Below the pieces are notes generated by a model. The model worked only from the letters and a program-made list of their open reading frames with translations. It had not been told where the DNA came from and made no database searches. A stretch of 64,000 nt of DNA from an uncultured Alphaproteobacteria bacterium (GTDB lineage Bacteria > Pseudomonadota > Alphaproteobacteria > Reyranellales > Reyranellaceae). A program made the position numbers and the translations under genes. The stretch is from contig CAVXZJ010000010.1 in the NCBI GenBank assembly GCA_963766285.1, positions 74,250 to 138,249 on the forward strand. Reading direction: 5' to 3'. Below, piece by piece: positions 8,581-55,305 of this stretch (within the stretch, counting starts at the first letter, position 1; the number at the start of each line of letters is the position of its first letter).

Positions 8581-8582
8581 GG

Positions 8583-14879: not shown

Positions 14880-15612
14880 ACTCGATCAGCAGGCCGCCGG
14901 TGCTCTCGGGCGACACCAGCACGCGATCGCCCTCGGTGACGGCAAACGGCACATTGTTGGCGCGCAGCAGCGCCTGGAGCGGCCGGGCGCGTTCGACGGC
15001 GACGGCAATGCCCACGATCGACGGCTTGCGCAGCGGTTCCATCGCCTCGATCGCCTTGTATTCCTTCAGCCACGCCGCCGGCGACCAGATCAGCAGTTCG
15101 ACCATGCCGGTTCGCACGAGCGTGCAGCCGTCGAATATCTCCTCGGTTTCGCCGCTCCACGCGTCCTTGAGTTCCCTGGCGGTCTTCTTGGGATCGTCCG
15201 ATACGGCGTGCACGCAGATGAAGGCGAGCGCGCCGTTGGCATGGACGACCAGCTCGGGCTCGACGAAGGCCTCCGGATTGAACTGCTTGACCGTCAGCCA
15301 CGGCACCGGCCCGCCGCCTTCGCCGACGATCAGGCTGCCCTCGATGTCGCCGTCGTCGCCTTCCCATTTGAAGCTGCGCTTGTCGCCCTTGAGCTCCTCG
15401 ACATTCATCGCGAGGTTCATGAAATCGACCGGGCTTTCGGCGATCTCGATGTAGTTCGGGATGTCTTCGTCGGCAGGCACGAAACAAATGCAGCGCGGCC
15501 AGACGCCATCGGGCGTCAGGGTGAAGCCAAGCTGCTCCAGCCGGGTGGCGGTGACCCCGGGCTCGGTGGCGTTGATCGTCAGATGGTCGATATCGAGGGC
15601 GGAAATCTTCAT
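14863..15612 (-). CDS. VOC/glyoxalase-like domain protein
   Basis: IDHLTI start, LEQLGFTLTP, HANGA, LLIEF end. Confidence 0.75.
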   Translation of the reverse strand: MKISALDIDHLTINATEPGVTATRLEQLGFTLTPDGVWPRCICFVPADEDIPNYIEIAESPVDFMNLAMNVEELKGDKRSFKWEGDDGDIEGSLIVGEGGGPVPWLTVKQFNPEAFVEPELVVHANGALAFICVHAVSDDPKKTARELKDAWSGETEEIFDGCTLVRTGMVELLIWSPAAWLKEYKAIEAMEPLRKPSIVGIAVAVERARPLQALLRANNVPFAVTEGDRVLVSPESTGGLLIEFMPQN

Positions 15613-15635
15613 GCCGCCTCTTACAGGCGCGCGCT

Positions 15636-16028
15636 TCAGGCTTCCAGCGTCTTCTTCAGGAAGGGGGTGGCGTGGTCCATCATTCCGGCAACCGCGGGGG
15701 CCAGTTCGTCGGGCAGCAGGTCGATGGTCCAGACCAGCCGGCATTGCCCCGCACCCTCCGGGAAGATCTGCACGGCGGCGCTGTAGTGCGATGCCCGGCC
15801 CTCGGGGATGCAGTAGACAAGCCGCCTGGCCTCGTCGTCCAGCGTGACCAGCCGCTCCCGCGCCACCATGCCGTTGAAAAAAGTGACGATCCTGTCGGCG
15901 CCGTCCATCTCGAGGCCGGTCAGGAAGCCCGGCGCCACTTTCGTGTGCACCTGGCCGAAGTCGCGCACGGCCGCCCACACCTTGTCGATGGATGCGTCGA
16001 GCGGCAGTTCGCGGCGATTGGTTGCCAT
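15636..16028 (-). CDS. SRPBCC (polyketide cyclase-like) family protein
   Basis: ASIDKVWAAVRDF, RIVTFFNG.VARERLVTLDDEARRLVY. Confidence 0.88.
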   Translation of the reverse strand: MATNRRELPLDASIDKVWAAVRDFGQVHTKVAPGFLTGLEMDGADRIVTFFNGMVARERLVTLDDEARRLVYCIPEGRASHYSAAVQIFPEGAGQCRLVWTIDLLPDELAPAVAGMMDHATPFLKKTLEA

Positions 16029-16114
16029 GGTTGATCGTCCCTCGTTGTTGCGGCTTCATCCAGCCGCCAGGCCTGCTGCGGGTCTGGCGGTTTTCGGACG
16101 CAACAGGTTCAGCC

Positions 16115-16627
16115 ATGGACAAGCCCAGGACACCCGAGGTCGAAGCCTATTGGAAGGAGTACCGTTGCGCGCGCGGTGTGCCTGAGCAGCCGTACGACGT
16201 CTGCCGCATGGGTGACAGCGCCGGCATGGGCGACCAGCTGCTGAAGATCATCCTGAACGGCCCCAAGCGAGCGACGGCCTGCCTGCTGCGCGAGATCGAA
16301 GCCGGCGGCGAAGTCATGGCGACGGTCGGCGGTCATGTGGTGGTGCTCGACGGGCGCGACAAGCCGCGTGCCATCTGGCGCACCAAAACGGTCGAGGTGA
16401 AGCCGCTTGATCGGGTCGACGACGCCTTTGCCTGGGACGAGGGGGAAGGCGATCGCACGCGGGCCGACTGGCTCGCTCTTCACACACGCTATTTCGCGAG
16501 GCGCGCGGAGGCGGAGGGCTTCACCTTCGATCCGTCTATGCCCGCGGTGTTCGAGCGATTTACTGTGGTCTGGCCGCCGGAGCATGCCGACCCCGGCGAA
16601 GCAAAAATGAACGCGGAGGAAAAATGA
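16115..16627 (+). CDS. ASCH domain protein
   Basis: LNGPKRAT, VVLDGRDKPRAI, FAWDEGEGDRT...W...H..YF. Confidence 0.9.
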   Translation: MDKPRTPEVEAYWKEYRCARGVPEQPYDVCRMGDSAGMGDQLLKIILNGPKRATACLLREIEAGGEVMATVGGHVVVLDGRDKPRAIWRTKTVEVKPLDRVDDAFAWDEGEGDRTRADWLALHTRYFARRAEAEGFTFDPSMPAVFERFTVVWPPEHADPGEAKMNAEEK

Positions 16628-17917
16628 CGATTTTCCGGAGCCTGAGCCTCGCGGCGCTGGGCCTTTCGATCGTGGTGCCGGCGTGGGCCCAGGGGATTCC
16701 GAAGGCGCAGTCGCCGGAGGAAGTGGGGCTCTCTTCGCCCCGGCTGAAGCGACTGTCTGATCGCCTCAACGAAGGCGTCAAGGCCGGGGAGCTGCCGGGC
16801 GCGGTGGTCCTGATCGCACGCAACGGCAAGGTCGCGCTGTTCGAAGCCTATGGCTTCCGCGACAAGGATGCCAAGGCGCCGATGAAGACCGACACGATCT
16901 TCCGCATCGCCTCGATGACCAAGCCGATCGTGGCCGTCGCGGCGCTGATGCTGATGGAGGAGGGCAAGCTCTCGCTCGCGGATCCGGTGTCGAAGTACAT
17001 CCCGGCCTTCGCCGACACGAAGGTTTCGGTGAAGAAGGCCAACGCCGACGGCACCGTCGAGATCGCGCTGGAGCCGCAGTTCCGGCCGATGACCGTGCAG
17101 GACCTGATGCGCCACACTTCGGGCCTGACCTATGGTGCGGTCGGCAGCAACGAAGTGAAGCAGTCCTACATGGACATGAAGGTGATGGTGCCCGAGCAGA
17201 CCAACGCGGAGATGGTGGAGAAGCTTTCCAAGCTGGCGTTGCTCTACCAACCGGGTACGCATTGGGAATACTCGATGGCGATCGACGTGCTGGGCAGGGT
17301 GGTCGAGGTCGCCTCGGGCCTGACTCTCGACAGGTTCATCGAGGAGCGCATCACCCGGCCGCTCAAGATGGTGGACAGCGGCTTCGACGCCTCACCGGAC
17401 AAGAAGGATCGTGCCGCCCATCCGCAGAAGGAAGGGCCGAAGAACGAGATGCCGCGCATCCCGGACGTCACGCTCAGGACGGTCTGGAAATCCGGCGGCG
17501 GCGGCATGGTCTCGACGGCCGCCGATTATGCGCGCTTCGCCGCAGATGCTGGCCAACGGCGGCCAGCTCGACGGCGTGCGGCTGCTGTCGCGCAAGAGCG
17601 TCGAGTTGATGACCTCGAACCATTTGCCGCCCGACATCCAGATGGGCGACGACATGTATCGCTTCGAGGCGTTGGAACCGAGCGCCCGCATGGGCCAGGG
17701 CTTCGGCCTCACCGTCGCGGTGCGCACCGACGCGGGTCGCAATCCGCTGCCCGGATCGGTGGGCGACTATTTCTGGGGCGGGGCCTACGGCACCTACTTC
17801 TGGGAAGATCCGCACGAGCACCTGTACGTGATCTTCATGATGCAGTCGCAAACCGCGCGGCTACCGTACCGCTATTTGATGCGCGACATGGTGTATCAGG
17901 CCTTGACCGGCAACTAA
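16624..17917 (+). CDS. Serine hydrolase, beta-lactamase class C family (frameshift ~17545)
   Basis: ASMTK (SxxK), LMRHTSGL, QPGTHWEYS, WGGAYGTYFW in the second frame. Confidence 0.9.
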
Positions 17918-17957: not shown

Positions 17958-19308
17958 GTGCGGAGTAGGTATTTGTCCTCCCGGTGGGTGCATAGAATAA
18001 CGGCACGTTCGTACCGCTCCTGGGTGTTGGTGCTGGGCATGGTCGTGATCGCCGGCGGGGCATACTTCGCCTGGCACCATTGGCATGCGTTGGAAGCCGA
18101 AAGGCAGGCAAAAAGCAAGCCGCCTGCCGCGATTCCGGCCACGGTAGCAGCGGCCGAGAAGGCCGACTTTCCCGTCTACCTGAAGGGCCTGGGCACGGTG
18201 CAGCCCTTCAACACGGTCACGGTGAGGAGCCGCGTCGACGGCGAAGTCATCAAGATCGGCTTTCGCCAGGGCGAGATGGTGAAGGAGGGCGCCCTCATCG
18301 CCGAGATCGACCCACGCCCCTACCAGGCCGCGCTCGACCAGGCCGAGGCCAAGAAGAAGCAGGACGAGTTCGGACCTTGCCAACGCCCGCCTCGACCTGG
18401 CGCGGTTCACCGACCTGGCCAGGCAGAACTTCGCCACCCGCCAGCAGCTCGATACGCAGACTGCGAAGGTGAGCGGCCTCGAATCGCAGATCAAGGGTGA
18501 CGAGGGCGTGATCGCAAATGCGCGCACGCAGGTCGCCTATACCAAAATCACGGCGCCGATCTCCGGCCGTACCGGTTTTCGTCTGGTCGACCAGGGCAAC
18601 AACGTTCACGCAGCCGACACCACCGGCATTGTGACGATCGTGCAGCTGCAGCCGATCTCGGTCGTGCTGACCGCGCCCGAGGAGCAGGTCGTCGCGATCA
18701 ACAAGGCCCTCGCCGGAGGCGACGTGCAGGTGATCGCGCAGACTTCCGACGGCACGAAGACGCTGTCGACCGGCAAACTCGCGCTCGTGAACAACGAGGT
18801 CGACCCGGCTGCCGGCACGATCCGCATGAAGGCGAGATTCGAAAACCAGGATTACGCGCTGTGGCCCGGCCTGTCGGTCTCCACGATGCTGCTGGTCGAG
18901 ACGCTGAAGGGTGTCACGGTGGTGCCGCAGGATGCCATCCAGCACGGGCCGGACGGTCTCTTCGTCTATGCCGTCGGAAGCGACAACAAGGTCGACATCA
19001 GGCCGGTGAAGGTGAGCCAACAGGGCAACAATCGCGCCGTCGCGACGGCGGGCCTGTCGCCCGGCGACAAGGTCGTGGTCTCCGGCCAGTCGCGTCTGCA
19101 AAAGGGCACCTTGATCAAGCCTGTCGAGGGCAAGCCGCAGGACAATTCGCCATCGCCCGCCAAGCCGCCGGAAGTTGCGGAGACCTCGTCGGCACCGTCC
19201 TCGTCCACGGTGCAATCGCCTACGGGGCGTCACGGCCAAGTCGCCCTGACATGGCGATCAACGTTTCCGCGCCGTTCATCCGCCAGCCGATCGCCACATC
19301 GCTGCTGA
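17958..19308 (+). CDS. RND efflux periplasmic adaptor, MdtA-like (frameshift ~18370; start and end uncertain)
   Basis: GLGTVQPFNTVTVRSRVDG, EIDPRPYQAAL, ITAPISGRTG, NEVDPAAGTI, LWPG. Confidence 0.88.
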
Positions 19309-28405: not shown

Positions 28406-28923
28406 CCGAACACGAGGCCGAGCCCGATCGCGGCGATCAGCGCCCACAGCAGGTTGAACTCGGTGAAGGCCACGAACAGGGTCGCGCCGATGGTGATCGC
28501 GATGCCGAGCAGGTTCGGGTTGGAGGATTCGACCATCACGGCGCCGCTCGCCAGGATCATGCCGATCGCGACCGGCACCAACCCGTCCTTGAAGATCAGC
28601 AGCCATTTCGATCGCCCGGCACGCAGCATCAGCTTGCTCGCGGCGAAAGCCAGCAGGCAGGGCGGGACCAGGGTGGCGAGCGTCGCGGTCAGCAGGCCGG
28701 CGAGGCCCGCGACCTGCCAGCCGATCAGGCTCACGATCATGACATTGGGGCCGGGCGCGAGCTGGGCCAGGGCGAACAGGTTGGCGAACGTGCGCGCGTC
28801 CATCCAATGGTAGACGTCCACGGCCTGGCGATGCATCTCGGGCACGACCGCGTTGGTGCCGCCGAACTGCAGGAGCGACAGCCAGGCGAAAGTGCCAGCG
28901 AGCTGTTGCAGCAGGTCGCTCAT
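28402..28923 (-). CDS. Short-chain chromate transporter subunit
   Basis: FGGTNAVVPEM, ALAQLAPGPN. Confidence 0.88.
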   Translation of the reverse strand: MSDLLQQLAGTFAWLSLLQFGGTNAVVPEMHRQAVDVYHWMDARTFANLFALAQLAPGPNVMIVSLIGWQVAGLAGLLTATLATLVPPCLLAFAASKLMLRAGRSKWLLIFKDGLVPVAIGMILASGAVMVESSNPNLLGIAITIGATLFVAFTEFNLLWALIAAIGLGLVFG

Positions 28924-29467
28924 CGCCGCTGCCACCAGACCGAGGCGATCGAGAGCGGCCCCAGCACCAGGATCGCCAGCAACATCGGTAGATGGAAGAG
29001 ACCCACCGAGACGAATGCGGCGAGGCCGATCGCGATGGCCGCGATATTGGGCTTGATGCGTCGGGCGAGCTTGATCGCGGTGCCGATCACCATGCCGGCC
29101 GCGGCCGCTGCGCCCGCTGCCATCGCGGCGCCGACACCGGGCAGGCCGGCGATGTGGTCGTAGACGATCGCGATGGCGATCTCAGCACCAGGATCGGCGT
29201 ACCGGCGATCCCCAGGGCCGAAACGATCGCACCGGCGGTGCCGCGGAAGCGATCACCGATCATGATGGCGCAATTCACGGTATTGGGGCCCGGGATCACC
29301 TGGCCGACACCGAGGAGCGCCGCGTATTCGCGGTCGTCGAGCCAGCGCTTCTCCTCGACGATGATGTGCCGCGCCCACGGCGCCACGCCGCCGAAGCCGA
29401 GCAGGCCGATCTTCGCGTAGCCCAGGAAGAGCTGGAGCAGAGTGGGCGGGGTCAGCGCTCCGCCCAC
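28920..29467 (-). CDS. Short-chain chromate transporter subunit (frameshift ~29195; start uncertain)
   Basis: KIGLLGFGGV, GQVIPGPNTVN, FRGTAGA; continues in the second frame as MAAGAAAAAGMVIG. Confidence 0.82.
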
Positions 29468-30766: not shown

Positions 30767-30859
30767 GGAGGGGTGGCCGAGTGGCCGAAGGCGGCGGTTT
30801 GCTAAACCGTTATAGGGAGATAATCCCTATCGTGGGTTCGAATCCCATCCCCTCCGCCA
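30767..30859 (+). tRNA. tRNA-Ser(GCT)
   Basis: GGAGGGG/CCCTCCG acceptor arm with encoded CCA, anticodon GCT at 30801-30803, long variable arm, GGTTCGAATCC T-loop. Confidence 0.97.
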
Positions 30860-31165: not shown

Positions 31166-31378
31166 CTCCTCCAATTTGGATGCAAAATATAAGGCCTTTG
31201 TTCTAGCGCCTGATATCCGAAGTGCGGGGCTGCATTGCGTCAGCTTCCGCTTGCACTGCTTGCAACCTGCAGTACGCAGTCCTAACAGTTGAGGGTCTCG
31301 GTTTGAGGGTGCTACGGCGCCAAGTGCGTGGGAAGCACCCTCCGTGCATCGGGGCGATTAGCAAGAGGGGGTATACTC

Positions 31379-32002
31379 ATGATGAAGAAGCTTCTGATCA
31401 CGTCGGCAGCCGTACTGCTGCTGGCGGCATGCCAACAGCAGCAGGCAGCCAGCCCGCCGCCTGCCGCGCCCCGGGCGCAGGGTTTCAGCGTGTACTTCGA
31501 CACCGGCCAATCGGCATTGTCGTCCGAAGCGACCGCAACTGTTGCGCAGGCGGCCGCTGCCTACAAGCAGGGCGGCGTCAACGTTGGAGTGCGCGGCCAC
31601 GCCGATACCGTGGGCAACTCGGAGTTCAACCTACAGCTCTCGCAGCGGCGCGCGGCGTCCGTGAAGGCCGCCCTGCAGAGCAACGGCGTACCGGGGTCGG
31701 CGATCCTGAGCGGCGGCGTAGGCGAGGATCTCCTGCCAGTCCCGACCGCCGAAAACGTCCCCGAGCGGCTCAATCGCACCGTCCGTATTGTCGTCGCGAG
31801 ACAGGCGCTCATGAGCGACGCGGACTATTGCCAGGCCCTCAGCGTTCTCTATCGTCGCTATCGCCCGGCCACCATCGATGAAGCGGCAGCTCACGCGATG
31901 GGCATATGCCCGACCGATCCGGCATCGGCCATTCCCGTCCTCGAGGACGCCGTCAGTCAGATGAAGATCCCGCTGCCCTCGCGCGTCCTGGCGCGCAGCT
32001 AG
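31379..32002 (+). CDS. OmpA-family lipoprotein with C-terminal two-cysteine (DxxYC...IPVLE) domain
   Basis: LLAAC lipobox; VYFDTGQS, GHADTVG..FNLQLSQRRA, NRTVRI; C-terminal SDADYCQALS...IPVLE...LPSR. Confidence 0.9.
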   Translation: MMKKLLITSAAVLLLAACQQQQAASPPPAAPRAQGFSVYFDTGQSALSSEATATVAQAAAAYKQGGVNVGVRGHADTVGNSEFNLQLSQRRAASVKAALQSNGVPGSAILSGGVGEDLLPVPTAENVPERLNRTVRIVVARQALMSDADYCQALSVLYRRYRPATIDEAAAHAMGICPTDPASAIPVLEDAVSQMKIPLPSRVLARS

Positions 32003-32021
32003 CCAACTAAACCGAAATCCG

Positions 32022-32059
32022 CGGGGGGCGGTCAAAGGTGACTCCCCCCGTTTTCGTTT
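32022..32059 (+). terminator. Rho-independent terminator after the OmpA gene
   Basis: CGGGGGG..GTCA/TGAC..CCCCCCG stem followed by TTTTCGTTT. Confidence 0.7.
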
Positions 32060-32219
32060 GCGGCTGCACGCCGTGCTCGTGCATGCCCCGCCCTGAGTAA
32101 CGCCCTTCATCATGGGCGCGGTCGTTGTCAGGGTGAAGAGCCGCTGTATTCCGTGCGCGGAAAGTTCGGTCTAGTCTTCATCATCAGCGAGGCGATGCTG
32201 ATTTAGATGGGATGGGTCG

Positions 32220-34522
32220 ATGCTTGACCAGGCAAGTCCACTCGAGATCGACCTCGGCCGCCCGATCGGCGTCAGTCCGCAACTCTCCGCGCACGTCACC
32301 GACGAACGTCGCGTCCTGCTGCTGGGTGAGTCCCGCAGCTTTCGCCTGGGCGGCAAGCTCTATGTCGCGCTGCTGCCCTTCCTTGACGGCACCCGTACAG
32401 GGCAGCAGGTCGTGGAAGCCTTCGCCGGCCGCGTCGCAGCCGACCGCCTGCGTTCGGTCCTGCAGGACATGCTCAAGAAGGAATACATCCGCTATATCGA
32501 TCCGGCGGCGCCGATGGCGCGTCAGGCACTGTGGGTCGAACTCGGGCTTTCGCCGGCAGAGGCCGAGCGGCGTTTGCGCGGCCAGTCGCTGGCGGTAAAG
32601 GCCGCGTCCCGGGACGGATCGCTGGCAGTGGCGGCAAAGGCGCTGAAGCAGGCGCTGGTGGCCAGCGGAATGCCCGTTGTGGCCGCGAAAGACGCCGCAA
32701 TCGTCGTCATGGTTGTCGACGATTACCTGCGGCGCGATCTGGCGGTCGTGAACCGGCGCATGCGCAAGGCGGGCCGCTCGTGGATCCCGTTCAAGGCCGG
32801 TGGCAGCATGCCGATGATCGGCCCGCTGTTCCGTCCGGACCGAGCGCCGTGCTGGGCGTGCCTGGCGAACTTCATCGTCGAGAACCGGCCGGGCGACAGG
32901 GTCGTCGATCAGACGCTCGAAGCGGTGCGGCCCGCCAGGGCCCGGACACCGGCGACCCTGGCGATGGCCGCAGGCTTCGGAGCACTGGAACTCGCGCGCG
33001 AGCTTGCCGGCGAGCAGCCCGCAGGGCTCGAACGCCACGTGCTGAGCTTCGACCTGAAGGAGCGTGCCTTCAGGCGACACGAGATCCGGATCGATGCCAA
33101 TTGTCCGGTGTGCGGCACTCGTGAGAAGCCGCGCGCCGTGCTGGAGCGCGCCAAACGGCCGATCGTGCTGCGCCCGCAACCGGTCCAGCCACAGGTCGAC
33201 GGCGGCTGGCGCACGCTCACCGCCGAGCAGGTCGTGCAGAAGCTCGACCGCTATGTCAGCCCGATCACGGGCATCATCTCCGGACTGGAAGACATGTCGC
33301 TCGGACTGGGCCTGCCGGTGTTCGCCGCACGACAGACCAATCCCGTGCCTGTCGGTCCGCGGCAGAACCGCCTGATCGGCCGTCCCAGCGGCGCGGCCGG
33401 CAAGGGCATGAGCGAGGCGCAGGCCAAGGCGAGCTGTCTCGCGGAGGCAGTCGAGCGCTACCTCTGCGGCTACACCGGACGGGAGCCGCGCATGCGTGCG
33501 ACATGGGATCGCGTCAGGAAACAGGCGCCGCATCCCTGCACCTACCTGAACTACAGCGAGCATCAGTACGATATCCGCGAGGAGTGGAACAAAGCCAATG
33601 GCGGCTTCAATTGGGTAGGCGAGCGTTTCGACGAGACGCGGGCGATCGAGTGGACGCCGGCCTGGTCGCTGAGCCGCAATGCGCTGCGCTGGCTGCCGAC
33701 GCGCTATTGCTATTTCAACTACAGCGACACCGTGGAAGGCGAAGAGAATATCTTCTGCCGCGGCAACTCCAACGGCTGTGCCTCCGGCAGCACCATCGAG
33801 GAAGCGATCGTTCAGGGGTTCTTCGAACTGATCGAACGCGATGCGTGCGCTCTGTGGTGGTACAACCGCGTCCGCCGCCCGGCATTCGACCTCGACGCGC
33901 TGGACGACCCCTTCGTCCGCCGCGCGCGCGCCTGGGCGGCCGCCCGCAAGCGCGGCGTATCGGTTCTCGATCTGACGACCGATCTCGGCCTGCCGGTGGC
34001 GATGGCTGTGTCGCACAGCCTGGCCGATGGCGGTTCGATCGTTTTCGGGTTGGGCGCGCATTTCGATCCCGCCATCGCCGTGAGCCGCGCCCTGGCCGAG
34101 CTCAATCAGCTGGCCTCGCTGGAGGACATCAAGGCGATCAAGGAAGCACCGGACGCCGCGGGCGATCCTGTCGATACGATGGTGGAGTGGCTGCGCGGCC
34201 ACACGCTCGAGACCGATCCGTATTGCGTGCCGGATGGCGTCGTGTCGACGGGGCGGTACGCTGCTCCGCCGATCGGCGACCTCAAGCAGGCGGTCGGAGC
34301 GTTGTGTCCGTGCCGTCTCGGATCGCGGTTACGACATGATCGTGCTCGACCATCTCGCGGGCCGAGGTGGATTTCGCCGCCGCGCGCGTGGTCGTGCCGG
34401 GCCTGCGTCACTTCTGGGCGCGGCTGCGCGAGGGCCGGCTCTACCGTGCGCCGGTCGACATGGGCTGGCTCGGCGCGCCGCATGCGGAAGCGGATCTCAA
34501 CCCGGTGCCATTTTTCCTGTGA
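32220..34522 (+). CDS. Fused RRE/E1-like-YcaO cyclodehydratase of a TOMM/LAP RiPP pathway (frameshifts ~34305 and ~34350)
   Basis: PCWAC and CPVC Zn motifs, SCLAEAVERY and NSNGCASG...FFELIERD YcaO motifs. After frame correction it ends RVVVPGLRHFWARL...LNPVPFFL* (TGA 34520-34522). The 1217-aa ORF call is an artefactual fusion. Confidence 0.9.
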
Positions 34523-34529
34523 GGCTCCC

Positions 34530-35873
34530 GTGACCGGCGTCGTCGACCTCGTCTACCGTTTCGAACCCGACGTGCAGAAGGTCGAGCGCACGGGCGATGG
34601 GATCGCGATCCATGTCAGGAACTGGAAGACCCTGAACGTTTCACCGCCGACGGCGGCGGGCGCGAACGCGATCGTCGCGCTGATGGACGGCGCCACCCTC
34701 GAACGTCTCGCGCAAATCGGCGGCTCGACCGGGATCGCCAGCCACTACGCCGAACGATTCTCGCGGGCGCGCCTGCTGGTATGGGACATCGTCGACGCAG
34801 AGGGACCGCTGGCCCGTGCGACCTCGCTGACGGCGGGCTACCGGCCGCGCGAAGATGCGCCACCCGAACAGCCGCTCGCCCTCAGCCGCTTTGCCTATCT
34901 GCGTGCGGATGGCCCGCGCATGATCGTCGAGTCGGGGCTCGTGCGGGCGTGCCTCGTGCTCGAGCCGCGCGGACTGGCGGCACTCGCGCGTTCGCTGGAA
35001 CATCCGCACACCGCCGCTGTCGACGATTTTGCCGGCGTACTTTGGCGGATGGGCTTCTTCGAGCCGGCAGGCCTCGAGGAGAGCGACGTCCGGGCCTGCT
35101 GGGAGTTTCACGATCTCCTGATGCACGAGCAGAGCCGGTTCAATCGCAGCCAGCCGCGCCGCGGCCTTTACCGGCTGGAAAGCAAGGTCCCCGAGCCCCC
35201 CGCGGTGAAGCCCGCGATGCCCGGCACCCGCATTGCCTTGCCCGCGGTCGAGACGGCGCGCCTGGCGAGCTCCAGCGGGCGGCTGGAAGACGTCCAGGAC
35301 CGCCGGCGCTCGCTGCGCGCCTACGCCGACAGGCCGCTGCCGCTGCAGGCTCTTGGCGAATTCCTCTGGCGGACGGCCCGCACGCGAGCGAGCTTCGACG
35401 CCGGTGGGCATTCGCTGCTGACGCGCGGCTATCCCGCAGGCGGCAGCATCCATGAACTCGAATTCTACGTCGCCGTGCGCTCCTGCGAGGGACTCGAGCC
35501 GGCGCTTCATCACTACGACAGCCACGGCCATGCGATGATCCGGCTCGAAGGATCGGCCAGGGGCGCCGCCCGGATCGTCGAGAACGCGTTTGCGGCGATG
35601 GCGCTGGAGCCCGGGCAGGTCATGCCGCAGGCCGTCATCGTGCTGGCCTCGCGCGTGCCGCGGCTTGCCTGGAAATACGAGGGTGTCGCCTACCGCCTCG
35701 CGCTCCTCAACGCCGGCGTGGTGATCGAACTCATGTATCTGGTAGCGACCGACATGCGGTTGTCGCCGTGCGCCAACGGCTCGGCCAATTCGCGCCCGTT
35801 CGAGGAGTCGACGGGCCTCGATCCCCTCGCCGAAACCGCACTGGCCGAGTTTTGCCTCGGCGTGCCTGCGTGA
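34530..35873 (+). CDS. SagB-type FMN-dependent peptide dehydrogenase
   Basis: GTG start 7 nt after the YcaO stop; WEFHDLLMH, RRRSLRAY, YPAGGSIHELEFY, AWKY, LNAGV. Confidence 0.9.
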   Translation: MTGVVDLVYRFEPDVQKVERTGDGIAIHVRNWKTLNVSPPTAAGANAIVALMDGATLERLAQIGGSTGIASHYAERFSRARLLVWDIVDAEGPLARATSLTAGYRPREDAPPEQPLALSRFAYLRADGPRMIVESGLVRACLVLEPRGLAALARSLEHPHTAAVDDFAGVLWRMGFFEPAGLEESDVRACWEFHDLLMHEQSRFNRSQPRRGLYRLESKVPEPPAVKPAMPGTRIALPAVETARLASSSGRLEDVQDRRRSLRAYADRPLPLQALGEFLWRTARTRASFDAGGHSLLTRGYPAGGSIHELEFYVAVRSCEGLEPALHHYDSHGHAMIRLEGSARGAARIVENAFAAMALEPGQVMPQAVIVLASRVPRLAWKYEGVAYRLALLNAGVVIELMYLVATDMRLSPCANGSANSRPFEESTGLDPLAETALAEFCLGVPA

Positions 35874-36745
35874 CCAGCGGGATTACGGAGAAGCGCGCCA
35901 GCGAGCTGACCGCGGCCGAGGTCGACGCCTTCCATGTCGATGTCCTGGGGGAGCAGCGCGTCCGGACGGCTGGTGCTGGCCTCTTCAACGGATTCGGCCG
36001 CGCGGCCCTGGCAGGAGAAGAACTCGTCGGTCTGATGGCCGGGGACTTTGTGTCCCGCAACGACGATACGGGCGAATGGCTGCTCAATCTGCGCGGCGGC
36101 GTGCATCCGCGGTTGCGACGCCGCGGCATCGGCCGGCGCCTGATGGAGAGACTTGTCGTGGACTGCCACGAGCTGGAAGGGGGCGTCGATATGCTGGCGA
36201 CTCTTACCGAAGCCGAACTCGACGCAGGCGGCCCCTTCGTGTCGGCGCTCGGCTTCGAAGAGACCGTCGGGATGGTCCGTTATCAGGCCAATCCACGGAT
36301 CGTTCCCCTGCTGCCGCGCAATGGTGCGTTTGCGACGCGTGCCTATCGCGGCGGGGAGCCCGCCACGGATGCGGCAATCGCCGATCTCTACGGTCGCGCC
36401 TATCGCGGCCGCCGCAGCGTGCCGCAGCTCAGGCTCGGGTTTTCATCCGATCTGGCCTACCTGCTCGTCTTCGATGGCGATCTGCTGGTCGGCCACGCGA
36501 CAGCCCAGAAGGTAAACGACGTCTGCTTCATCGACAGCATCGTGGTGGCACGTTCTCACTGGGCGTCGGGTGCAGCCGATGCCCTGTCCGGGGCAATCCA
36601 TCGTCACGCGCTGCAGCAGGCCGCGCGTCTCGTCGTGGCCTACGTCGAGGCAAGCAATCGGGCGAGCCGCGCGCTGATCGAGCGCCACGGAATGACCGAG
36701 GTCGCGACCTTCAGCCGCTTCCGTCGGACCGTGGCCAGGATATGA
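35870..36745 (+). CDS. Tandem GNAT acetyltransferase of the RiPP operon
   Basis: GTGA overlap with the dehydrogenase; VHPRLRRRGIGRRL (GNAT 1) and VVARSHWASGAA...EASNRASRAL.ERHGM (GNAT 2). Confidence 0.85.
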   Translation: MTSGITEKRASELTAAEVDAFHVDVLGEQRVRTAGAGLFNGFGRAALAGEELVGLMAGDFVSRNDDTGEWLLNLRGGVHPRLRRRGIGRRLMERLVVDCHELEGGVDMLATLTEAELDAGGPFVSALGFEETVGMVRYQANPRIVPLLPRNGAFATRAYRGGEPATDAAIADLYGRAYRGRRSVPQLRLGFSSDLAYLLVFDGDLLVGHATAQKVNDVCFIDSIVVARSHWASGAADALSGAIHRHALQQAARLVVAYVEASNRASRALIERHGMTEVATFSRFRRTVARI

Positions 36746-36781
36746 CGGCGAAAGAAGAACGCGCTGCAGAAGGCCTCGGGC

Positions 36782-36937
36782 CTACCGGTCCGGCGCCGAC
36801 GGGAAGACAGGGCACAAGTTCTGGCACCCGGGATGGGAAAGCGTTTCGGCGCGATCGAGTGCTTCATCCGAGAGTTCGTCGTCGAACTCCGGAACGAACC
36901 CTTCCTGTTCCTGTGGCGCGATTTTCTGAACAGACAT
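36782..36937 (-). CDS. Candidate RiPP precursor peptide (51 aa)
   Basis: Translated by hand: MSVQKIAPQEQEGFVPEFDDELSDEALDRAETLSHPGCQNLCPVFPSAPDR*. AGGAGG RBS 5 nt before the ATG; acidic leader with ELSDEAL. Confidence 0.8.
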   Translation of the reverse strand: MSVQKIAPQEQEGFVPEFDDELSDEALDRAETLSHPGCQNLCPVFPSAPDR

Positions 36938-37018
36938 TGAAGCCTCCTGGGGAACTCCCGCCCAGGTAGCATGAATACTAATTCGATGACTTACAACACC
37001 CGCTATGTGCAGAATTAA

Positions 37019-37050
37019 ATTGAAAGGGCATAAATCCGGCCCCTTTCAAT
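37019..37050. promoter_or_regulatory. Inverted repeat in the AT-rich divergent region upstream of the precursor
   Basis: ATTGAAAGGG-N12-CCCTTTCAAT, perfect 10-bp arms. Confidence 0.5.
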
Positions 37051-37076
37051 GGCGATGAAACAATAGGGGGCAATCG

Positions 37077-37610
37077 ATGAATGCCGCCGAATACACCGCT
37101 ACCGAACGCCTGCGCGATGGAAGATCGGTGCAGATTCGGGCGCTGCATCCGGGCGATCGGGCCGAGATGCTTGCCGCCGTCGGGCGATTCAGCAAGCAGT
37201 CGCTATACCGCCGGTTCTTTGCGCCGAAACGAAGCTTCAGCGAGCGCGAAATCGAATTCTTTCTCAACGTCGACTTCATCGGCCACGTGGCACTGGTGGC
37301 CGTGCTCTCCGAAGGGGAGCGGCAGGTGATTGCGGGCGGTGCGCGGTACATCATCGCGCAACCCGGCCGGGCGGAGCTTGCGTTCGCAATCGACGACCCG
37401 CATCAGAAGCTGGGTATTGCCACCCGCCTGATTGCCCATCTCGCCGAGATCGCCCGCGCGGCTCAACTCGAGGCGTTTGTCGCCGAAGTGCTGCCGGAGA
37501 ACGCGCCGATGCTCAAGATATTCGAACGCTGCGGACTGGCGATGACGACGCGCCGGGAGAGGGGCGTCGTTCACGTGACGCTCGCTCTTACCGCCGCGGG
37601 CGGTGCTTGA
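37077..37610 (+). CDS. GNAT acetyltransferase (Pat-like stand-alone domain)
   Basis: LRDGRSVQIRAL.P.D, SLYRRFF, AELAFAIDDPHQKLGIATRL, VLPENAPMLKIF. Confidence 0.9.
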   Translation: MNAAEYTATERLRDGRSVQIRALHPGDRAEMLAAVGRFSKQSLYRRFFAPKRSFSEREIEFFLNVDFIGHVALVAVLSEGERQVIAGGARYIIAQPGRAELAFAIDDPHQKLGIATRLIAHLAEIARAAQLEAFVAEVLPENAPMLKIFERCGLAMTTRRERGVVHVTLALTAAGGA

Positions 37611-37985: not shown

Positions 37986-38204
37986 CTACCTGTTGTTGCC
38001 GATGGCGGTGCCGCCGATGTAGCCGACCGCGCCGCCGATCAGGCCGGCACCGACGACCTGGCCGAAGCTGCCGCCGGCCACCATGCCGATGCCGGTGCCG
38101 AGAGCACCGCCGGCGACGGCGCCCTTCTGGCCGGGGGACATGTTCTCGCAGCCGCCCGACAGGGTGGCCGCGGAAATTGCCAGAGCAATGAGAACCTTGC
38201 GCAT
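37986..38204 (-). CDS. Glycine-zipper lipoprotein
   Basis: LSGGC lipobox followed by GAVAGGALG...GAGLIGGAVG. Confidence 0.85.
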   Translation of the reverse strand: MRKVLIALAISAATLSGGCENMSPGQKGAVAGGALGTGIGMVAGGSFGQVVGAGLIGGAVGYIGGTAIGNNR

Positions 38205-38344
38205 GACGCCCCCTTTGATCGACGCCGTCACGGCGTCACGTCCGATATCTGCCAGTCTTTTTCCGGCTTGAAAATCGCAATCTCGGCAGCCTTCCGCATG
38301 ACATCAGGATCGCGTTCCACTCGTCGACATCGCGGGACCTGGCG

Positions 38345-38520
38345 GCGGACAAAGTAAAGGCCGGTCGCTTGGGGACGACCGGCCTTCCTTGAAGAGCCTG
38401 CTGGGTTGGGAAGTCGAAGCCTTGGGTGTGTGGGAAGGGGGCTTCGACGAACGGCCTGGGTGGGCCGGTGCAGGCTATGGGAACTGGTGGTGGGTCGGTC
38501 TGCGCCGCTGGCGCTCATTC
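38345..38520 (-). ncRNA. Candidate multi-hairpin small RNA with C-rich loops ending in a terminator
   Basis: Perfect stems at 38357-38386 (11 bp, followed by UACUUU), 38413-38448 (9 bp) and 38452-38467. Loops read UCCCCAAG, CCCUUCCCACACACCCAA and CACCCA on the minus strand. No credible ORF. Confidence 0.45.
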
Positions 38521-38805
38521 CTTGGTGATTGAATTAAATGTAATAAAATCAATTGTCTCGACGCCGATCTAACGAAGGCACTTTACCTGATGGCGGGCGG
38601 ATTTAAACATGCAATTATGCATATCTTGAAGGTTCTACTGTTCATTTTTAAAGGGCTTTACCAGCTGTTTTATGCAGGCTTGAATATCTGAATCCCTCTT
38701 AAATATCCGAAAATATGATATATTATCATTTATAATCAATAGATTAGTGCATAATCTTCAGAATAGAAAATCGGCTTCCCGGGATTGAAACACTGCAATT
38801 TGAAG

Positions 38806-40590
38806 CTAGCGCGCAACAACAAGATGATCGGGCGCCAAACCTGCGTGGTGGCGGTCATGCATCGCTCTGTAGGCCGCCTCCAGATGGCGTGTGTAGGCCG
38901 CGATATCGAACAACGGAGTCGTCAGGCGGTTGTCGGCCAGCCGCCGCTTGAGGGTTTGCAAGCGCCCGGGATCGGTCGCCAGTTCGACGGCGAGCGCTTC
39001 GAACGCCGATGACGAAGGCACGATCAGTTCGGGGAGATCAATCGCCTTCAGCAGGCTGGCGGCGACTCGTCCGGCAAATGTCTCGCCCAGCTGCGTGAGG
39101 ACCGGCAGCCCTGCCCACAGGGCGTCGCTGACCGTCGTGTGACCGTTGTAGGGCGCGGTATCGAGAAACAGGTCGGCCACGCGATGCCGCGCCAGGTGTT
39201 CCGGCAAGGCCATGCGCGGCGCGAACACGAGACGCCCGCCATCCACGCCGCGCTGGACCGCTTCGCGTCGCAGGTTCGCGGCGGCAACTTCATTGTCCTC
39301 GAGCAGCCACAGCACGCTGCCGGGCACGGCGCGCAGGATCCTCATCCAGACCTCGAAGACGTCGGGCGTGATCTTGAAGTTGTTGTTGAAGGAGCAAAAG
39401 ACGAAGCGATCGGGCGGCAGGCCAAGTTCCTGTCGCGAAAACACCCGCTCGGAGATCCGGCGCTTGCTGTCGTTGGGCTGGTAGCAATCGGGGAGATAGA
39501 CGATTTTTTCGGAATAGTCGGAACGATGAGCGGCGGGGATCAGCGTCGGATCGGCGATCAGATAGTCGATGTAGTCGGCCCCCATCGTCCCGGGATAGAC
39601 GAGATAGTTGACCTGGAGGGGCGCCGCGCGCCGGGCAAATATGCCGGCCCTCGGCCCGCTCTGGAAGCCGTTCAGGTCCACGGCGATATCCAGCTCGAGC
39701 TTGCGCGCCTCCAGCGCCACCTCACGGTCGGTTTGTCCGTTGATATCGACAAAGGCGTCGAACGCTGCCGTCAGACGCCGGCGCATGTCGTCGGCGGTGT
39801 TCTTGCCGAACGACAGGCCGACGATTTCGAAGCGCGAGCGGTCGTGCTTCTCGAAGAGCTCCGCCATCAGGAAGGCGGTCGCATGGTTCTCGAAATTCGG
39901 CGAAAAGTAGCCGACCTTTATCCTGTCACGCCTGGCGCGCCGGCCGATCGCCGGCAGCGAATGGTCCGGCGGATGGCGATCGAGCACCCATCCCCTGGCC
40001 GCGCGATGCTGGACGGCGCGCGAACTGGTTTTCGACAGCAGTGCATAGGGCGACGACGCCTTTTGGCCCGCATCCACCTTCTTCACGAGCAGAGCGACCT
40101 CTTCATGCCAATCGCGCCAGTCGCAAATCCTCATTTTTGTGTGCAGGCGGGTTCCGAGCGCATAGCTGAGGCCCGGCTTCCGTGAAATCGCCTGGTCGAA
40201 GCTCGCCACCGCCTGCTCGAAACGGCGCAGGTCGATGAGGGCATGCGCCCGATTGAAGTGCGCATCCGCGAAGTTCTTGTCGAGCGCGATCGCCCTGTCA
40301 TGGCTGGCAAGAGCTTCTTCGGGCCGCCCCAATCCCTTGAGGGCGATACCCAGATTGTCGTGAACCGGCGCAAACCGGGAGTTAATGGCGATGGCCCGCC
40401 TGAACAGCTCGATCGCACGCTCCCTTTGGCCGCTTTGCAGGGCAACGACGCCGAGCAGATGAAGCGCGTGGAAATTGTCCGGTTCGGATGCGAGAATTTC
40501 CTCGTACAGTTTGCGCGCCTGCGCCAGTTTCCCTTGTTGATGCAACGGCACGGCCTGCTGCAGCTTCTGCTGGGTCGTCGGAGGCTTCAT
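38806..40590 (-). CDS. TPR-containing GT41 (O-GlcNAc transferase/SPINDLY-like) glycosyltransferase
   Basis: N-terminal TPRs; KVGYFSPNFENHAT, DIAVDLNG, RAAPLQVNYL.YPGT, FCSFNNNFKI, DLFLDT.PYNGHTT.SDALWAG. Confidence 0.92.
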   Translation of the reverse strand: MKPPTTQQKLQQAVPLHQQGKLAQARKLYEEILASEPDNFHALHLLGVVALQSGQRERAIELFRRAIAINSRFAPVHDNLGIALKGLGRPEEALASHDRAIALDKNFADAHFNRAHALIDLRRFEQAVASFDQAISRKPGLSYALGTRLHTKMRICDWRDWHEEVALLVKKVDAGQKASSPYALLSKTSSRAVQHRAARGWVLDRHPPDHSLPAIGRRARRDRIKVGYFSPNFENHATAFLMAELFEKHDRSRFEIVGLSFGKNTADDMRRRLTAAFDAFVDINGQTDREVALEARKLELDIAVDLNGFQSGPRAGIFARRAAPLQVNYLVYPGTMGADYIDYLIADPTLIPAAHRSDYSEKIVYLPDCYQPNDSKRRISERVFSRQELGLPPDRFVFCSFNNNFKITPDVFEVWMRILRAVPGSVLWLLEDNEVAAANLRREAVQRGVDGGRLVFAPRMALPEHLARHRVADLFLDTAPYNGHTTVSDALWAGLPVLTQLGETFAGRVAASLLKAIDLPELIVPSSSAFEALAVELATDPGRLQTLKRRLADNRLTTPLFDIAAYTRHLEAAYRAMHDRHHAGLAPDHLVVAR

Positions 40591-40852: not shown

Positions 40853-41039
40853 GGAGTCGGGCTTTACCGGTCTGGTCTCCGAGACGTTCCAAGGGATGTA
40901 CGCGCCGGCCGGCACGCCCGCCGACATCGTGCAGAAGGTCGCGCGCGACACGCTCGAGGTGCTGGCCGGTCCCATGGTCATCGGCAAGCAGCGCGACGTC
41001 GGCTTCGACGTGCGCAAGTCGGGGATGGAGCTGCAATAG
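40853..41039 (+). pseudogene. C-terminal fragment of a Bug/TctC gene
   Basis: ESGFTGLVSETFQGMYAPAGTPADIVQKV...GFDV with no upstream coding region. Confidence 0.7.
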
Positions 41040-41046
41040 AAAATCG

Positions 41047-41616
41047 CTAATGAAATTTCTTGCCGTCCCTCATCATTTGAACAATTAAATCCATGCGCTT
41101 CGTTCGCGTCTCGGGCTTCTTCGCAGTCTGGAGGCGCCAAACAATCGCAAATACGTTCGCTCTATTCAATGACTCGAAGAACGAGAGCGCCCGTTCGTCT
41201 TTCTTAAGCTCGCGAAGAAAATCCGCCGGTATCTCCATGGTGCTTGCAGCATCATACGCCTTGTCCCAGCGCCCATCTTTTTTGGCAGCATCGACTTCTT
41301 TCTGGCCGCTGACAGTCATGCGCTTTGTTTTAATGAGCCGTGTGGCATGTTCACAGTTCTTCTTCGACCAAATGCTCCTCGCGCGGCGAGGCGTGAATTT
41401 CTGCAGCCATGAGTTTTCATCGCCCTTGTTTTTCTGGCCGTCTATCCAGCCGTAGCAGAGTGCTCCGTCGAGAGCGTCGGCATAGGTAACCGTCTTCTTT
41501 CCGGAGCCCTTTTTATGGATGCGCAGCCAGATGCCGTCTGATGTTGCATGATTCGCATCGAGCCATCTGCGCCAAACCGCGGCTGATGGGAAGGATTTGG
41601 TGCGTTTTTCTTGCAT
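41047..41616 (-). CDS. YdeI/OmpD-associated family protein
   Basis: ALCYGWIDG, QKFTPRRARSIWSKKN, GQKEVDAAKKDGRWDKAY, AKKPETR; AT-richer than its neighbours. Confidence 0.92.
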   Translation of the reverse strand: MQEKRTKSFPSAAVWRRWLDANHATSDGIWLRIHKKGSGKKTVTYADALDGALCYGWIDGQKNKGDENSWLQKFTPRRARSIWSKKNCEHATRLIKTKRMTVSGQKEVDAAKKDGRWDKAYDAASTMEIPADFLRELKKDERALSFFESLNRANVFAIVWRLQTAKKPETRTKRMDLIVQMMRDGKKFH

Positions 41617-41623
41617 GAGGGTC

Positions 41624-41654
41624 TTGACAATTATTGCGTAATACGCAATATATG
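41624..41654 (+). promoter_or_regulatory. TTGACA -35 box overlapped by a perfect palindrome
   Basis: TTGACA at 41624-41629; TATTGCGTA-A-TACGCAATA at 41632-41650. Confidence 0.5.
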
Positions 41655-41730
41655 CGTGTTGCTCTATTCACTGTCTGGAGGGCGTCGGCCAGTTAGCGCA
41701 ATTAGCGCTACCCCGCTACCCCCACCGTCC

Positions 41731-42672
41731 CTACCCGACGAGGGGCATGACCTCGGCGGCGAAGCGCTGCAGGCGCTCGATGCTGGCGCTCGTCGACTCG
41801 CCGCGGAAGTCGAAGATCAGCTCGTGCACGCCGATGGTGGCAAACGAGCGGATGTCGGCCGCGATCTGCTCGGGCGTACCCGAGAAGCTGCGGCGCGTGC
41901 CGTCGCGGTCGGGCACGGCGTTGTCGTAAAGCGGCGCCTTGTAGGAGATGGTGAGGGCGGAGAAATCGCGGCCCTCGGACTCGCTCATCTGCTTCAGGGT
42001 GGCGAGGTGTGTGCGCATCTCGTCGGGCGGCAATGGCGAGGCCGCGATGGCGCCGACCGGGTGCCAGCCGTTGCCATGCTTCGCCGTACGGCGGAGCGCA
42101 GCGCGCGAGTGGCCGCCGACCCAGATCGGCGGATGCGGCTTCTGCAGCGGCGGCGGCTCGGCGCGGATGTCCTTGTACTCGTAGAACTGGCCCGCGAAGC
42201 TCGCCGGCGACTGGGTCCAGAGCTGCTTGAAGATCGTGAGCCACTCGTCGGTGACGGCGCCGCGCTTGTCGAAGTCGGGGGTGTCGAGGGCCTCGAACTC
42301 TTCCTTGAGCCAGCCGACGCCGACGCCCAGGGTGACGCGGCCGCCGGACAGGACATCGAGCGACGCCACCATCTTCGCGGTGAGCACGGGGTTGCGGTAG
42401 GGCAGGACGAGGACGGAGGTGACGAGGCGCAATCGCTCCGTGGCGCCCGCCACCACGCCCAGGATGGAAAAGGTCTCGAGCGCGTCGCCGCCGCTGGGGT
42501 GCTTTTTGTCCAGCGTGTAAGGATATGCCGACTCGCTCTCCACGGGGAAGACGATGTGATCGGCGATCATGGCGGAGTGCAATCCGAGCCGCTCGCCTTC
42601 ACGGGCGAGGGACAGGACGCCGTCGCGTGTGGCGGTGGGACCGCGTGTCGGAAGATAGAAGCCGTAGCGCAT
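41731..42672 (-). CDS. LLM-class (F420-dependent-like) oxidoreductase
   Basis: IADHIVFP, LVTSVLVLPYRNP, DVLSGGRVTLGVGVGWLKEEF, PPIWVGGHS. Confidence 0.92.
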   Translation of the reverse strand: MRYGFYLPTRGPTATRDGVLSLAREGERLGLHSAMIADHIVFPVESESAYPYTLDKKHPSGGDALETFSILGVVAGATERLRLVTSVLVLPYRNPVLTAKMVASLDVLSGGRVTLGVGVGWLKEEFEALDTPDFDKRGAVTDEWLTIFKQLWTQSPASFAGQFYEYKDIRAEPPPLQKPHPPIWVGGHSRAALRRTAKHGNGWHPVGAIAASPLPPDEMRTHLATLKQMSESEGRDFSALTISYKAPLYDNAVPDRDGTRRSFSGTPEQIAADIRSFATIGVHELIFDFRGESTSASIERLQRFAAEVMPLVG

Positions 42673-54833: not shown

Positions 54834-55087
54834 AGAGCGCGCTTCTTCTGGTGACGATGACGGTCGCGGCACTGCCGGCCGCGGCCCAGACCCGCGCGCC
54901 GGCTGCGGCGAACCAGACCAACGCGGGCGGGACGGCCACCGTGCAGTCGCACATGAAGTCACTGGGCTACAAGGACATCCATGACCTGCGTCAAGGGCCT
55001 GACGGTCAATGGATCGGCAAGGCCACCCAGAACGGCGTCGAGCACACAGTGACCGTCGAGCCGAACGGAACGACCACCGCGCGCTAA
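54830..55087 (+). CDS. Small secreted PepSY-like protein
   Basis: Signal peptide; MKSLGYKDIHDL..GPDGQWIGKATQNG...VEPNG; ATGA overlap with the upstream gene. Confidence 0.75.
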   Translation: MKSALLLVTMTVAALPAAAQTRAPAAANQTNAGGTATVQSHMKSLGYKDIHDLRQGPDGQWIGKATQNGVEHTVTVEPNGTTTAR

Positions 55088-55173: not shown

Positions 55174-55190
55174 AATTTCACCGCCAATAA

Positions 55191-55290: not shown

Positions 55291-55305
55291 ATTTCCTGGT
55301 GCGCG

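Follow-up and report, generated by a model that had tools for sequence, protein, structure and literature searches.

A compact YcaO-SagB-tandem GNAT cassette with a short-leader precursor gene, probably a linear azole-containing peptide pathway, in an uncultured alphaproteobacterium

Does a cassette of three enzyme genes and one small gene, in which the YcaO gene is broken by two frameshifts, encode a working pathway to an azole-containing peptide, and what would that pathway make? This question is raised by a 64,000-nucleotide stretch of DNA from an uncultured member of the Reyranellaceae (contig CAVXZJ010000010.1, positions 74,250 to 138,249), hereafter called the window, in which three co-directional genes and one convergent small gene lie within 32220-36937. 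The co-directional genes encode a YcaO cyclodehydratase, a SagB/ThcOx-type dehydrogenase and a tandem GNAT acetyltransferase, and the small gene encodes a candidate precursor peptide (Table 1). An earlier interpretation made from the letters of the DNA, which we call the sequence-only reading, had proposed an apparently uncharacterised azole-type cluster for a ribosomally made, post-translationally modified peptide (RiPP). Our analysis indicates that the cassette is probably a self-contained linear azole-containing peptide (LAP) cassette, also termed a thiazole/oxazole-modified microcin (TOMM) cassette, built from enzymes of the cyanobactin/NHLP lineage (NHLP, a leader peptide resembling nitrile hydratase), with a thiazole product, tailoring by the GNAT and artefactual frameshifts. 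The azole-type proposal is borne out by matches to family models, by homologues of solved structure and, most decisively, by a precursor family that is conserved beside the enzyme pairs.

The proposed precursor was a 51-aa open reading frame (ORF). Its leader comprises approximately residues 1-31, including E17-FDDELSDEALDRA-E31 with an L22(X)4L27 element, and its core, approximately T32-R51 (TLSHPGCQNLCPVFPSAPDR), contains Cys38 and Cys42 and no Lys. Relatives were sought by tblastn and with a small hidden Markov model (HMM) built on the leader motif, and about 14 alphaproteobacterial loci (L001, L003-L006, L008-L013, L015, L037 and L038; YcaO identity 53-69%) were found to carry the motif (E/D)FxDELSDEALDR next to an orthologous YcaO-SagB pair; their hosts are Reyranella-like and other alphaproteobacterial metagenome-assembled genomes (MAGs) and one cultured Rhodospirillales isolate. 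In an alignment of 27 of these peptides, little or no variation occurs at F18, D20, L22, D24, E25, L27, D28 and R29, the Cys column is more than 90% conserved, and the 8-25 residues that follow the leader are hypervariable, nearly always with a Cys (for example ...DRAEGFKLNCGGCNCY, ...DRANALFCCYSGCHR and ...DRPTADSAQICVGWCGSE). Since the leader motif and a hypervariable Cys-containing core recur in this way beside orthologous enzyme pairs, the precursor gene is, as judged from these comparisons, a real one. Within the window's own lineage the core is kept: the peptide is identical in L032, a 98.5%-identical metagenome contig from ENA, and 71% identical in L038 (86.5% identical to the window in nucleotides), where in-frame indels are the sole difference and the core reads TVHPGCQGCLCPVFPSAPDR.

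From one to more than nine tandem precursor genes are present per locus. Large short-leader arrays with unrelated Cys-rich cores occur at L010:8900-12450 (at least nine genes), L008:16700-21550 (seven) and L012:9296-10423 (five), and on a JGI contig about a dozen ORFs of 45-60 aa lie beside the family member P0048. The layout of such arrays is combinatorial, as it is for prochlorosins or NHLP arrays. Curated resources hold nothing comparable to the window peptide, which gave no match to NCBIfam or Pfam models even at E<=10 and none to PDB peptides; the short precursors of the window, L001 and L037 gave no match to TIGR03793, the NHLP leader family, at E<=10, and one L037 short precursor gave a single chance-level match (E 0.079) to an unrelated model. 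Two relatives were returned from the protein database by a word-index search that cannot reach such relatives. In the papers searched, neither the leader motif nor the precursor family turned up, and no characterised pathway with this precursor, in agreement with the description of the cluster as apparently uncharacterised.

What kind of leader is this? More distant YcaO-SagB loci (L014, L016, L018, L019, L021, L029 and L030; 36-43% YcaO identity) carry true NHLP precursors, which score 65-91 bits against TIGR03793 (cut-off 50.9) and whose leaders end in ...PPKPxxxLSDEALDxVAGG. Only the terminal ELSDEAL element is common to these leaders and those of the window clade, and the window-clade leader is, in effect, the last segment of an NHLP leader minus the folded nitrile-hydratase-like domain. 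The common L-S-D-E-A-L is the L(X)4L element, which has been shown experimentally to bind the RiPP precursor recognition element (RRE) in the PatE/LynD and MprE/MprC systems: the LynD RRE binds L(X)4L in the complex with PatE, and MprC requires L(X)4L in order to modify NHLP substrates (PMC12455567). Going by this leader element, the system belongs to the cyanobactin/NHLP/Nif11 group defined by Cox et al. 2015 (PMC4603692). Three genomes contain two paralogous YcaO-SagB clusters, one with short leaders and one with NHLP leaders, namely L015 and L016 (Rhodospirillales URHD0017), L013 and L019 (MFD05513.bin.2.159) and L010 and L021 (SMAG_U12666). Such pairs are a natural system for studying leader/enzyme specificity, and the family as a whole is a natural test of the minimal leader for a TruD/LynD-type heterocyclase, with short leaders that keep only L(X)4L, as many as a dozen or so hypervariable precursors at a locus, and NHLP clusters as sisters in the same genomes.

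The enzymes have clear identities. An RRE/E1-type YcaO, a SagB dehydrogenase with a WKY motif and a tandem GNAT had been proposed, and the models named in that proposal (PF02624, TIGR03882, TIGR03604 and TIGR03605) all match, with curated cut-offs exceeded. YcaO family searches were run on the protein obtained after removal of two extra bases from its gene (766 aa). This frame-corrected protein scores 237.7 bits against TIGR03604 (SagD-type cyclodehydratase; cut-off 219.25) and 112.9 bits against TIGR03882 (leader-peptide-binding/E1-like domain; cut-off 36.9, residues 186-353), matches PF02624 at E 1.7e-86, and has a winged helix-turn-helix (wHTH) match to PF21084 at residues 19-90 (33 bits, cut-off 24.1). 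Its residues 16-764 align with TruD (4bs9) and LynD (4v1t), and MusD (7u58) aligns from residue 222 (E 6e-134 to 4e-128); the alignment to solved structures spans both CxxC motifs and the C-terminal region, and CWAC and CPVC line up with the CWHC and CPTC of TruD. The corrected protein ends in the predicted ...LNPVPFFL, which is encoded in the shifted frame, and is 99% identical to P0001, the intact 766-aa protein of L032. The dehydrogenase exceeds the cut-off of TIGR03605 (122.2 bits against 78.4), matches PF00881, contains the ThcOx domain PF22767 (51.4 bits, cut-off 27.7) and aligns with CyaGox (5lq4; E 5e-45), with its WKY, a Lys-Tyr motif, opposite the WKY of CyaGox. E-values for the cassette enzymes are far past chance. 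The cyclodehydratase and dehydrogenase are unexceptional representatives of a well-studied lineage, that of the cyanobactin/NHLP heterocyclases and the ThcOx oxidases. The compact, coupled arrangement described in the sequence-only reading was verified by coordinates: a gap of 7 nt separates the YcaO stop from the dehydrogenase GTG at 34530, and the dehydrogenase TGA and the GNAT GTG at 35870 overlap as GTGA. Gene calling on the intact relative L032 gives an identical layout.

From these parts we infer the following pathway. The 51-aa precursor would be expressed from its convergent gene, and the L22(X)4L27 of its acidic leader, within EFDDELSDEALDRAE, would dock as a beta-strand on the N-terminal winged-helix (RRE) of the E1-like/YcaO enzyme. 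ATP-dependent cyclodehydration by this fused enzyme would form azolines at Cys38 and Cys42 and perhaps also at Ser or Thr, and the dehydrogenase, dependent on flavin mononucleotide (FMN), would oxidise these azolines to thiazoles (-20 Da per ring). A host protease would then cut off the leader, just after ...LDRAE(G) as the family alignment suggests. In the LAP pathway of goadsporin, the N-terminus left once the leader is removed is acetylated by the GNAT GodH. The tandem GNAT of the cassette, which is translationally coupled, would most likely act on the new N-terminus in the same way, a free N-terminus being the expected target since the core has no Lys, or would alternatively provide self-protection.

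Several observations weigh against this pathway. Its product was not observed, and the cassette, which has no exporter, protease or immunity gene, provides neither for cutting off the leader nor for export. Most short-leader loci carry an AurF-like di-iron protein, DUF697, a Band_7/SPFH protein and a 541-aa ABC protein, the last of which is a TIGR01194 cyclic-peptide exporter (322 bits, cut-off 286), and the TIGR01194 exporter, Band_7, AurF-like protein and DUF697 are all absent from the whole 64-kb window. The GNAT is not present in most short-leader family members. The two extra bases in the YcaO gene lie only 57 nt apart and are the sole frame-breaking differences in the 12.3 kb common with L032, a spacing that is unlike uniformly random errors, and the window's own strain is in none of the indexed sequencing runs (the best word share, 0.48, is that of an L032-like strain).

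The strongest alternative concerns the GNAT, which may not be a tailoring enzyme at all and could instead confer self-resistance, by acetylating the mature or processed peptide in the producer, or be an unrelated neighbour. Its identity as a tandem GNAT, as first proposed, is well founded: the 291-aa protein has two Pfam GNAT domains, and its AlphaFold model (pLDDT 90.5) has the tandem-GNAT fold. A sequence search of the PDB gave no match. Foldseek returned as the best PDB matches of the model the tandem GNATs MAB_4324, VipF, MshD and the clavulanic-acid CBG protein, with E 4e-17 to 1e-13, TM-scores of 0.6-0.7 and sequence identities of 11-18%. When the 15 homologues are aligned, invariant positions are concentrated in the C-terminal domain (R228, S229, H230, W231, G234 and D237; motif RSHWxxGxxD), and the second GNAT domain is probably the catalytic one, as in MshD. 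Proteins of this family are rare (19 among 5.8 billion), and the score against NF041716 (HaaN), 19.1 bits with a cut-off of 250, places the protein outside that family.

Acetyltransferase-based immunity exists for other peptide antibiotics, as with MccE and microcin C. In the present case a role outside tailoring would fit with the restriction of the GNAT, among the family loci, to the window, L032 and L038, no other short-leader locus carrying one, with a core that offers no Lys, and with the occurrence of a second, unrelated GNAT just past the cassette at 37077-37610. However, the gene is joined to that of the dehydrogenase by the GTGA overlap, is co-inherited in a four-gene cassette whose flanks differ among the window, L032 and L038, and is under strong purifying selection (dN/dS, the ratio of non-synonymous to synonymous substitution rates, 0.10). 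Furthermore, among five homologues (38-44% identity) with listed context, three lie between a radical S-adenosylmethionine (radical-SAM) enzyme and a class II lanthipeptide synthetase (LanM), at least one of the three being followed by a convergent 50-aa ORF as in the window. The fourth adjoins the same ParA-like gene, and the fifth is in an unrelated polysaccharide-type neighbourhood with small ORFs on both sides. The presence of homologues in radical-SAM/LanM RiPP clusters argues that the GNAT is a RiPP-associated enzyme and not a chance neighbour. Taking both sides together, we regard a non-tailoring GNAT as possible but clearly the less likely case. That this GNAT type also occurs in lanthipeptide/radical-SAM clusters is a hint that it may be a tailoring or immunity module open to reuse. 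The order in those clusters is radical-SAM enzyme, tandem GNAT, in at least one case the convergent 50-aa ORF, LanM, ParA/MipZ-like ATPase and DUF697, with GNATs of 42-44% identity; they were seen in JGI samples 3300056388 and 3300047160 (P0127, P0128 and P0129) and in ENA ERZ27301951 (P0131), and one of them contains a nonribosomal peptide synthetase-like gene.

A further alternative takes the frameshifts as real, in which case the YcaO protein would lack its C-terminal approximately 75 residues and be read through as a 1217-aa fusion, and the pathway would be dead or decaying. In the assembled sequence the YcaO coding frame is frame 1 to approximately 34295, frame 2 to approximately 34352 and frame 3 to the stop, and frame 1 is open over 32220-35873 (1217 aa), an artificial fusion of YcaO, junk and dehydrogenase. 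The insertions are specific to the window and closely spaced, as described above, and the cassette is without the exporter set of most of its relatives. The part that would be lost aligns with the conserved end of TruD, and the C-terminal region of YcaO enzymes is known from BalhD and other YcaO work to be needed for activity.

Set against real frameshifts is, first, the comparison with relatives. Both insertions are single bases that are missing from L032 with its intact P0001, from L038, from short-read contigs of runs X1-X3 and from an approximately 91%-identical contig of run X9. The dN/dS of the YcaO gene between window and L032 is 0.14 (26 synonymous and 11 non-synonymous substitutions), no higher than in neighbouring genes, and of the six substitutions that follow the first insertion, every one is synonymous when read in the original frame and non-synonymous in the fused frame, where one of them would be a stop. 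The second insertion falls at the edge of a 42-nt stretch (34312-34353) that is common to other YcaO genes in the same metagenomes, and the border of such a shared stretch is a plausible site for consensus or polishing errors. At least eight further frameshifts occur in at least five unrelated genes of the window (Table 1), giving at least ten in its first 35 kb, which points to assembly error. The source contig, at 1.19 Mb, is typical of a long-read assembly, and split YcaO genes are also found in several long-read MAG loci of the family (L019, L026, L030 and L038). A scan of the metagenome collection with a pattern accepting either allele at both sites gave two chance matches, neither of them in a YcaO gene. 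The absence of the insertions from relatives, the low dN/dS, the synonymous substitutions and the many other split genes of the window together make it very likely that both insertions are assembly artefacts, and with an assembly this prone to indels the gene is most likely intact in the living organism, as it is for P0001. A genuinely disrupted pathway is accordingly improbable, and apparent pseudogenes elsewhere in this assembly deserve distrust.

It is very improbable that the YcaO enzyme carries out another of the known YcaO reactions (backbone thioamidation or amidine formation) or that the product is a cyanobactin-like macrocycle. The McrA-glycine thioamidation model TIGR03266 is matched below its threshold (137 bits, cut-off 365) and the nearest solved structures are cyanobactin heterocyclases, but the enzyme exceeds the cut-off of the azoline-forming SagD model and has a fused leader-binding domain, an azoline dehydrogenase is translationally linked to it, no TfuA and no PatA/PatG-type subtilisin protease lie within 10 kb in L032, and Cys is near-universal in the cores of the family.

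How, then, does the preferred reading, a LAP cassette with a thiazole product, compare with known systems? Like TruD/LynD/PatD and MusD, the window YcaO fuses wHTH/RRE, E1-like (two CxxC) and YcaO parts, and like ThcOx/CyaGox the dehydrogenase has a ThcOx N-terminal domain and the Lys-Tyr pair of WKY. The leader of the window family shares with PatE the L(X)4L recognition element 'ELSxEAL' (PMC12455567). Unlike the cyanobactins, however, the window system has no PatE-type recognition cassettes, its precursors are of 38-54 aa with one short core, the family comes from soil and freshwater Alphaproteobacteria, and the tandem GNAT is added; no peptidase or DUF-type cyanobactin gene was found within +/-10 kb of L032 or among the scanned window neighbours, so that the locus does not qualify as a cyanobactin pathway. 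The NHLP azole systems (MprC/MprD/MprE1-10 of a methanotroph; NHLP/Nif11 group) have a homologous YcaO-SagB pair and, like the window family, multiple tandem precursor genes with hypervariable cores, yet the window-clade precursors lack the approximately 60-residue folded NHLP domain and the GG cleavage site, the window YcaO is only 36-43% identical to the NHLP-associated clade, and the window has no PCAT-type NHLP exporter.

Goadsporin also comes from a linear azole peptide pathway with a GNAT; that pathway is found in an actinomycete, has separate or differently organised cyclodehydratase components together with dehydratases, and uses a single-domain GNAT. MshD, MAB_4324, VipF and the CBG protein share the two-GNAT fold of the window protein, and in MshD the C-terminal domain is conserved as it is here, but the contexts of these proteins are thiol, aminoglycoside or effector biology, whereas GNATs of the window type are found in RiPP clusters. 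Overall the novelty is modest: the product is uncharacterised, and the gene set adds a minimal leader family that is undescribed and absent from curated models, and a tandem GNAT.

If expressed, the cassette would yield a small thiazole peptide from poorly mined soil Alphaproteobacteria, and a need for only three enzymes and a 51-aa precursor makes it easy to produce in a heterologous host. Its YcaO and SagB genes would be picked up by standard genome-mining tools. More speculatively, and as a conjecture that we hold to be doubtful, the short acidic-leader peptides (xFxDELSDEALDR followed by a Cys-rich core of 8-25 residues) may descend from NHLP/cyanobactin leaders as a pared-down, undescribed branch and act as a combinatorial library for Alphaproteobacteria of soil and freshwater, the tandem GNAT, a rare protein, may form together with its convergent gene of about 50 aa a portable RiPP module used by chemically different maturation systems (YcaO/SagB on the one hand, radical-SAM and LanM on the other), and the product would be a new N-acetylated, Pro-rich bis-thiazole peptide.

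Was the cassette acquired horizontally, as the sequence-only reading suggested from a nearby tRNA-Ser gene and AT-richer patches? The tRNA gene is present at about the distance given (Table 1). The argument from base composition is weak, as the G+C content of the cassette (0.67-0.69) does not deviate from that of the rest of the window (0.64-0.70), and the classical signature of a tRNA island is missing, no tRNA-Ser-derived direct repeat flanking the cassette. Synteny does break off exactly at its borders. The segment homologous to L032 has its left end at 32146, 74 nt ahead of the YcaO start codon, and the sequence farther left is unrelated, with FRG and T5orf172 genes in L032 and an OmpA-like lipoprotein gene and the tRNA-Ser in the window; that the junction is real is shown by run X6, where a contig from an independent metagenome carries a left flank of L032 type up to this very breakpoint. 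Homology to L038 spans only 32211-36959, exactly the four genes, and the cassette thus behaves as a unit in different contexts. Together with the adjacency of tRNA genes in other loci, these breakpoints suggest a portable unit.

The left flank of L032 (L032:8460-9424) belongs to at least 10 kb of unrelated DNA that includes the T5orf172 and FRG-domain genes, which are characteristic of mobile or defence islands. Several clusters of the family lie 0.7-2 kb from a tRNA gene, like that of the window; tRNA-Phe genes are at L015:9192-9267 and L037:9186-9261 and a tRNA-Arg gene at L033:8040-8116, and an rve integrase fragment is at L037:7350-7907. Segments of the window with a G+C content of 0.57-0.61 (approximately 0.66 elsewhere) and low third-position G+C (GC3) are at 38001-39000, 41001-42000 and 55001-57500, outside the cassette.

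Table 1. Coordinates of the cassette, its presumed regulatory regions, the two extra bases and other split genes, numbered from the first letter of the window
Feature	Position	Strand	Remarks
YcaO cyclodehydratase gene	32220..34522	+	ATG 32220, true stop TGA 34520-34522; 766 aa once two extra bases are dropped
Sub-parts of YcaO gene (approximate)	wHTH 32274-32489; TIGR03882 domain 32775-33278; YcaO domain 33396-34408	+	
SagB/ThcOx-type FMN-dependent azoline dehydrogenase gene	34530..35873	+	447 aa, GTG start, TGA 35871-35873
Tandem-GNAT acetyltransferase gene	35870..36745	+	291 aa, GTG start
Precursor peptide gene	36782..36937	-	51 aa; GGAGG 6 nt ahead of ATG
Region 5' of YcaO gene, common to L032	32146..32219	+	Presumed promoter, 5' untranslated region and ribosome-binding site
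Intergenic region upstream of precursor gene	36938..37076	.	Presumed promoter; only 36938-36959 common to L038
tRNA-Ser(GCT)	30767..30859	+	ARAGORN; context only, 1361 nt upstream of cassette
Extra G, first +1 frameshift (GTC-GAG -> GTCGGAG)	34296..34296	+	Missing from L032, L038, runs X1-X3 and X9
Extra T, second +1 frameshift (GACCA-CTC -> GACCATCTC)	34353..34353	+	Missing from L032, L038, runs X1-X3 and X9
Amidohydrolase gene, split over three frames	5290-7010	+	PF07969 positions 1-135 and 195-472
Two TctC/Bug receptor genes, split	7614-9604	-	PF03401 1-57 / 75-261; second gene N-terminus / 70-273
Beta-lactamase-like hydrolase gene, split	16624-17917	+	By eye, shift near 17530
RND membrane-fusion protein gene, split	17958-19308	+	By eye, shift near 18365
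ChrA chromate transporter gene, split	28920-29440	-	PF02417 1-87 / 89-163

Among the neighbours of other family clusters, the conserved AurF-like, DUF697, Band_7 and exporter genes can be seen, for example, at L033:8268-9869 and 14002-16808 and at L037:13651-17298, and they recur in 10-20 loci. The 541-aa ABC protein was also considered as an ABC-F ribosome-protection factor and rejected as such, being a TIGR01194 exporter with a permease domain. Beyond the precursor gene in the window, the second GNAT gene (37077-37610, + strand) encodes a single-domain protein similar to the C-terminal domain of the protein acetyltransferase Pat (NF058543, E 8e-27, below the cut-off). The gene is divergent from the precursor gene and common to L032, but it falls beyond the stretch that L038 shares and so probably does not belong to the cassette.

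A contig of 233 nt from a leaf-litter metatranscriptome (run X12) matches the YcaO gene at 33979-34211 with 4 mismatches, which suggests that the YcaO gene of a close relative is transcribed in nature, carry-over of DNA being possible. A scan of the cassette for consensus promoters and terminators gave nothing beyond the shuffled expectation, and no consensus sigma-70 site was detected in the region upstream of the precursor gene. The OmpA-like lipoprotein gene (31328-32002) is directly followed, at 32021-32059, by a G6...C6 inverted repeat and then TTTTCGTTT, which together have the look of an intrinsic terminator between this gene and the cassette; the terminator scan passed over it, probably on account of its long loop.

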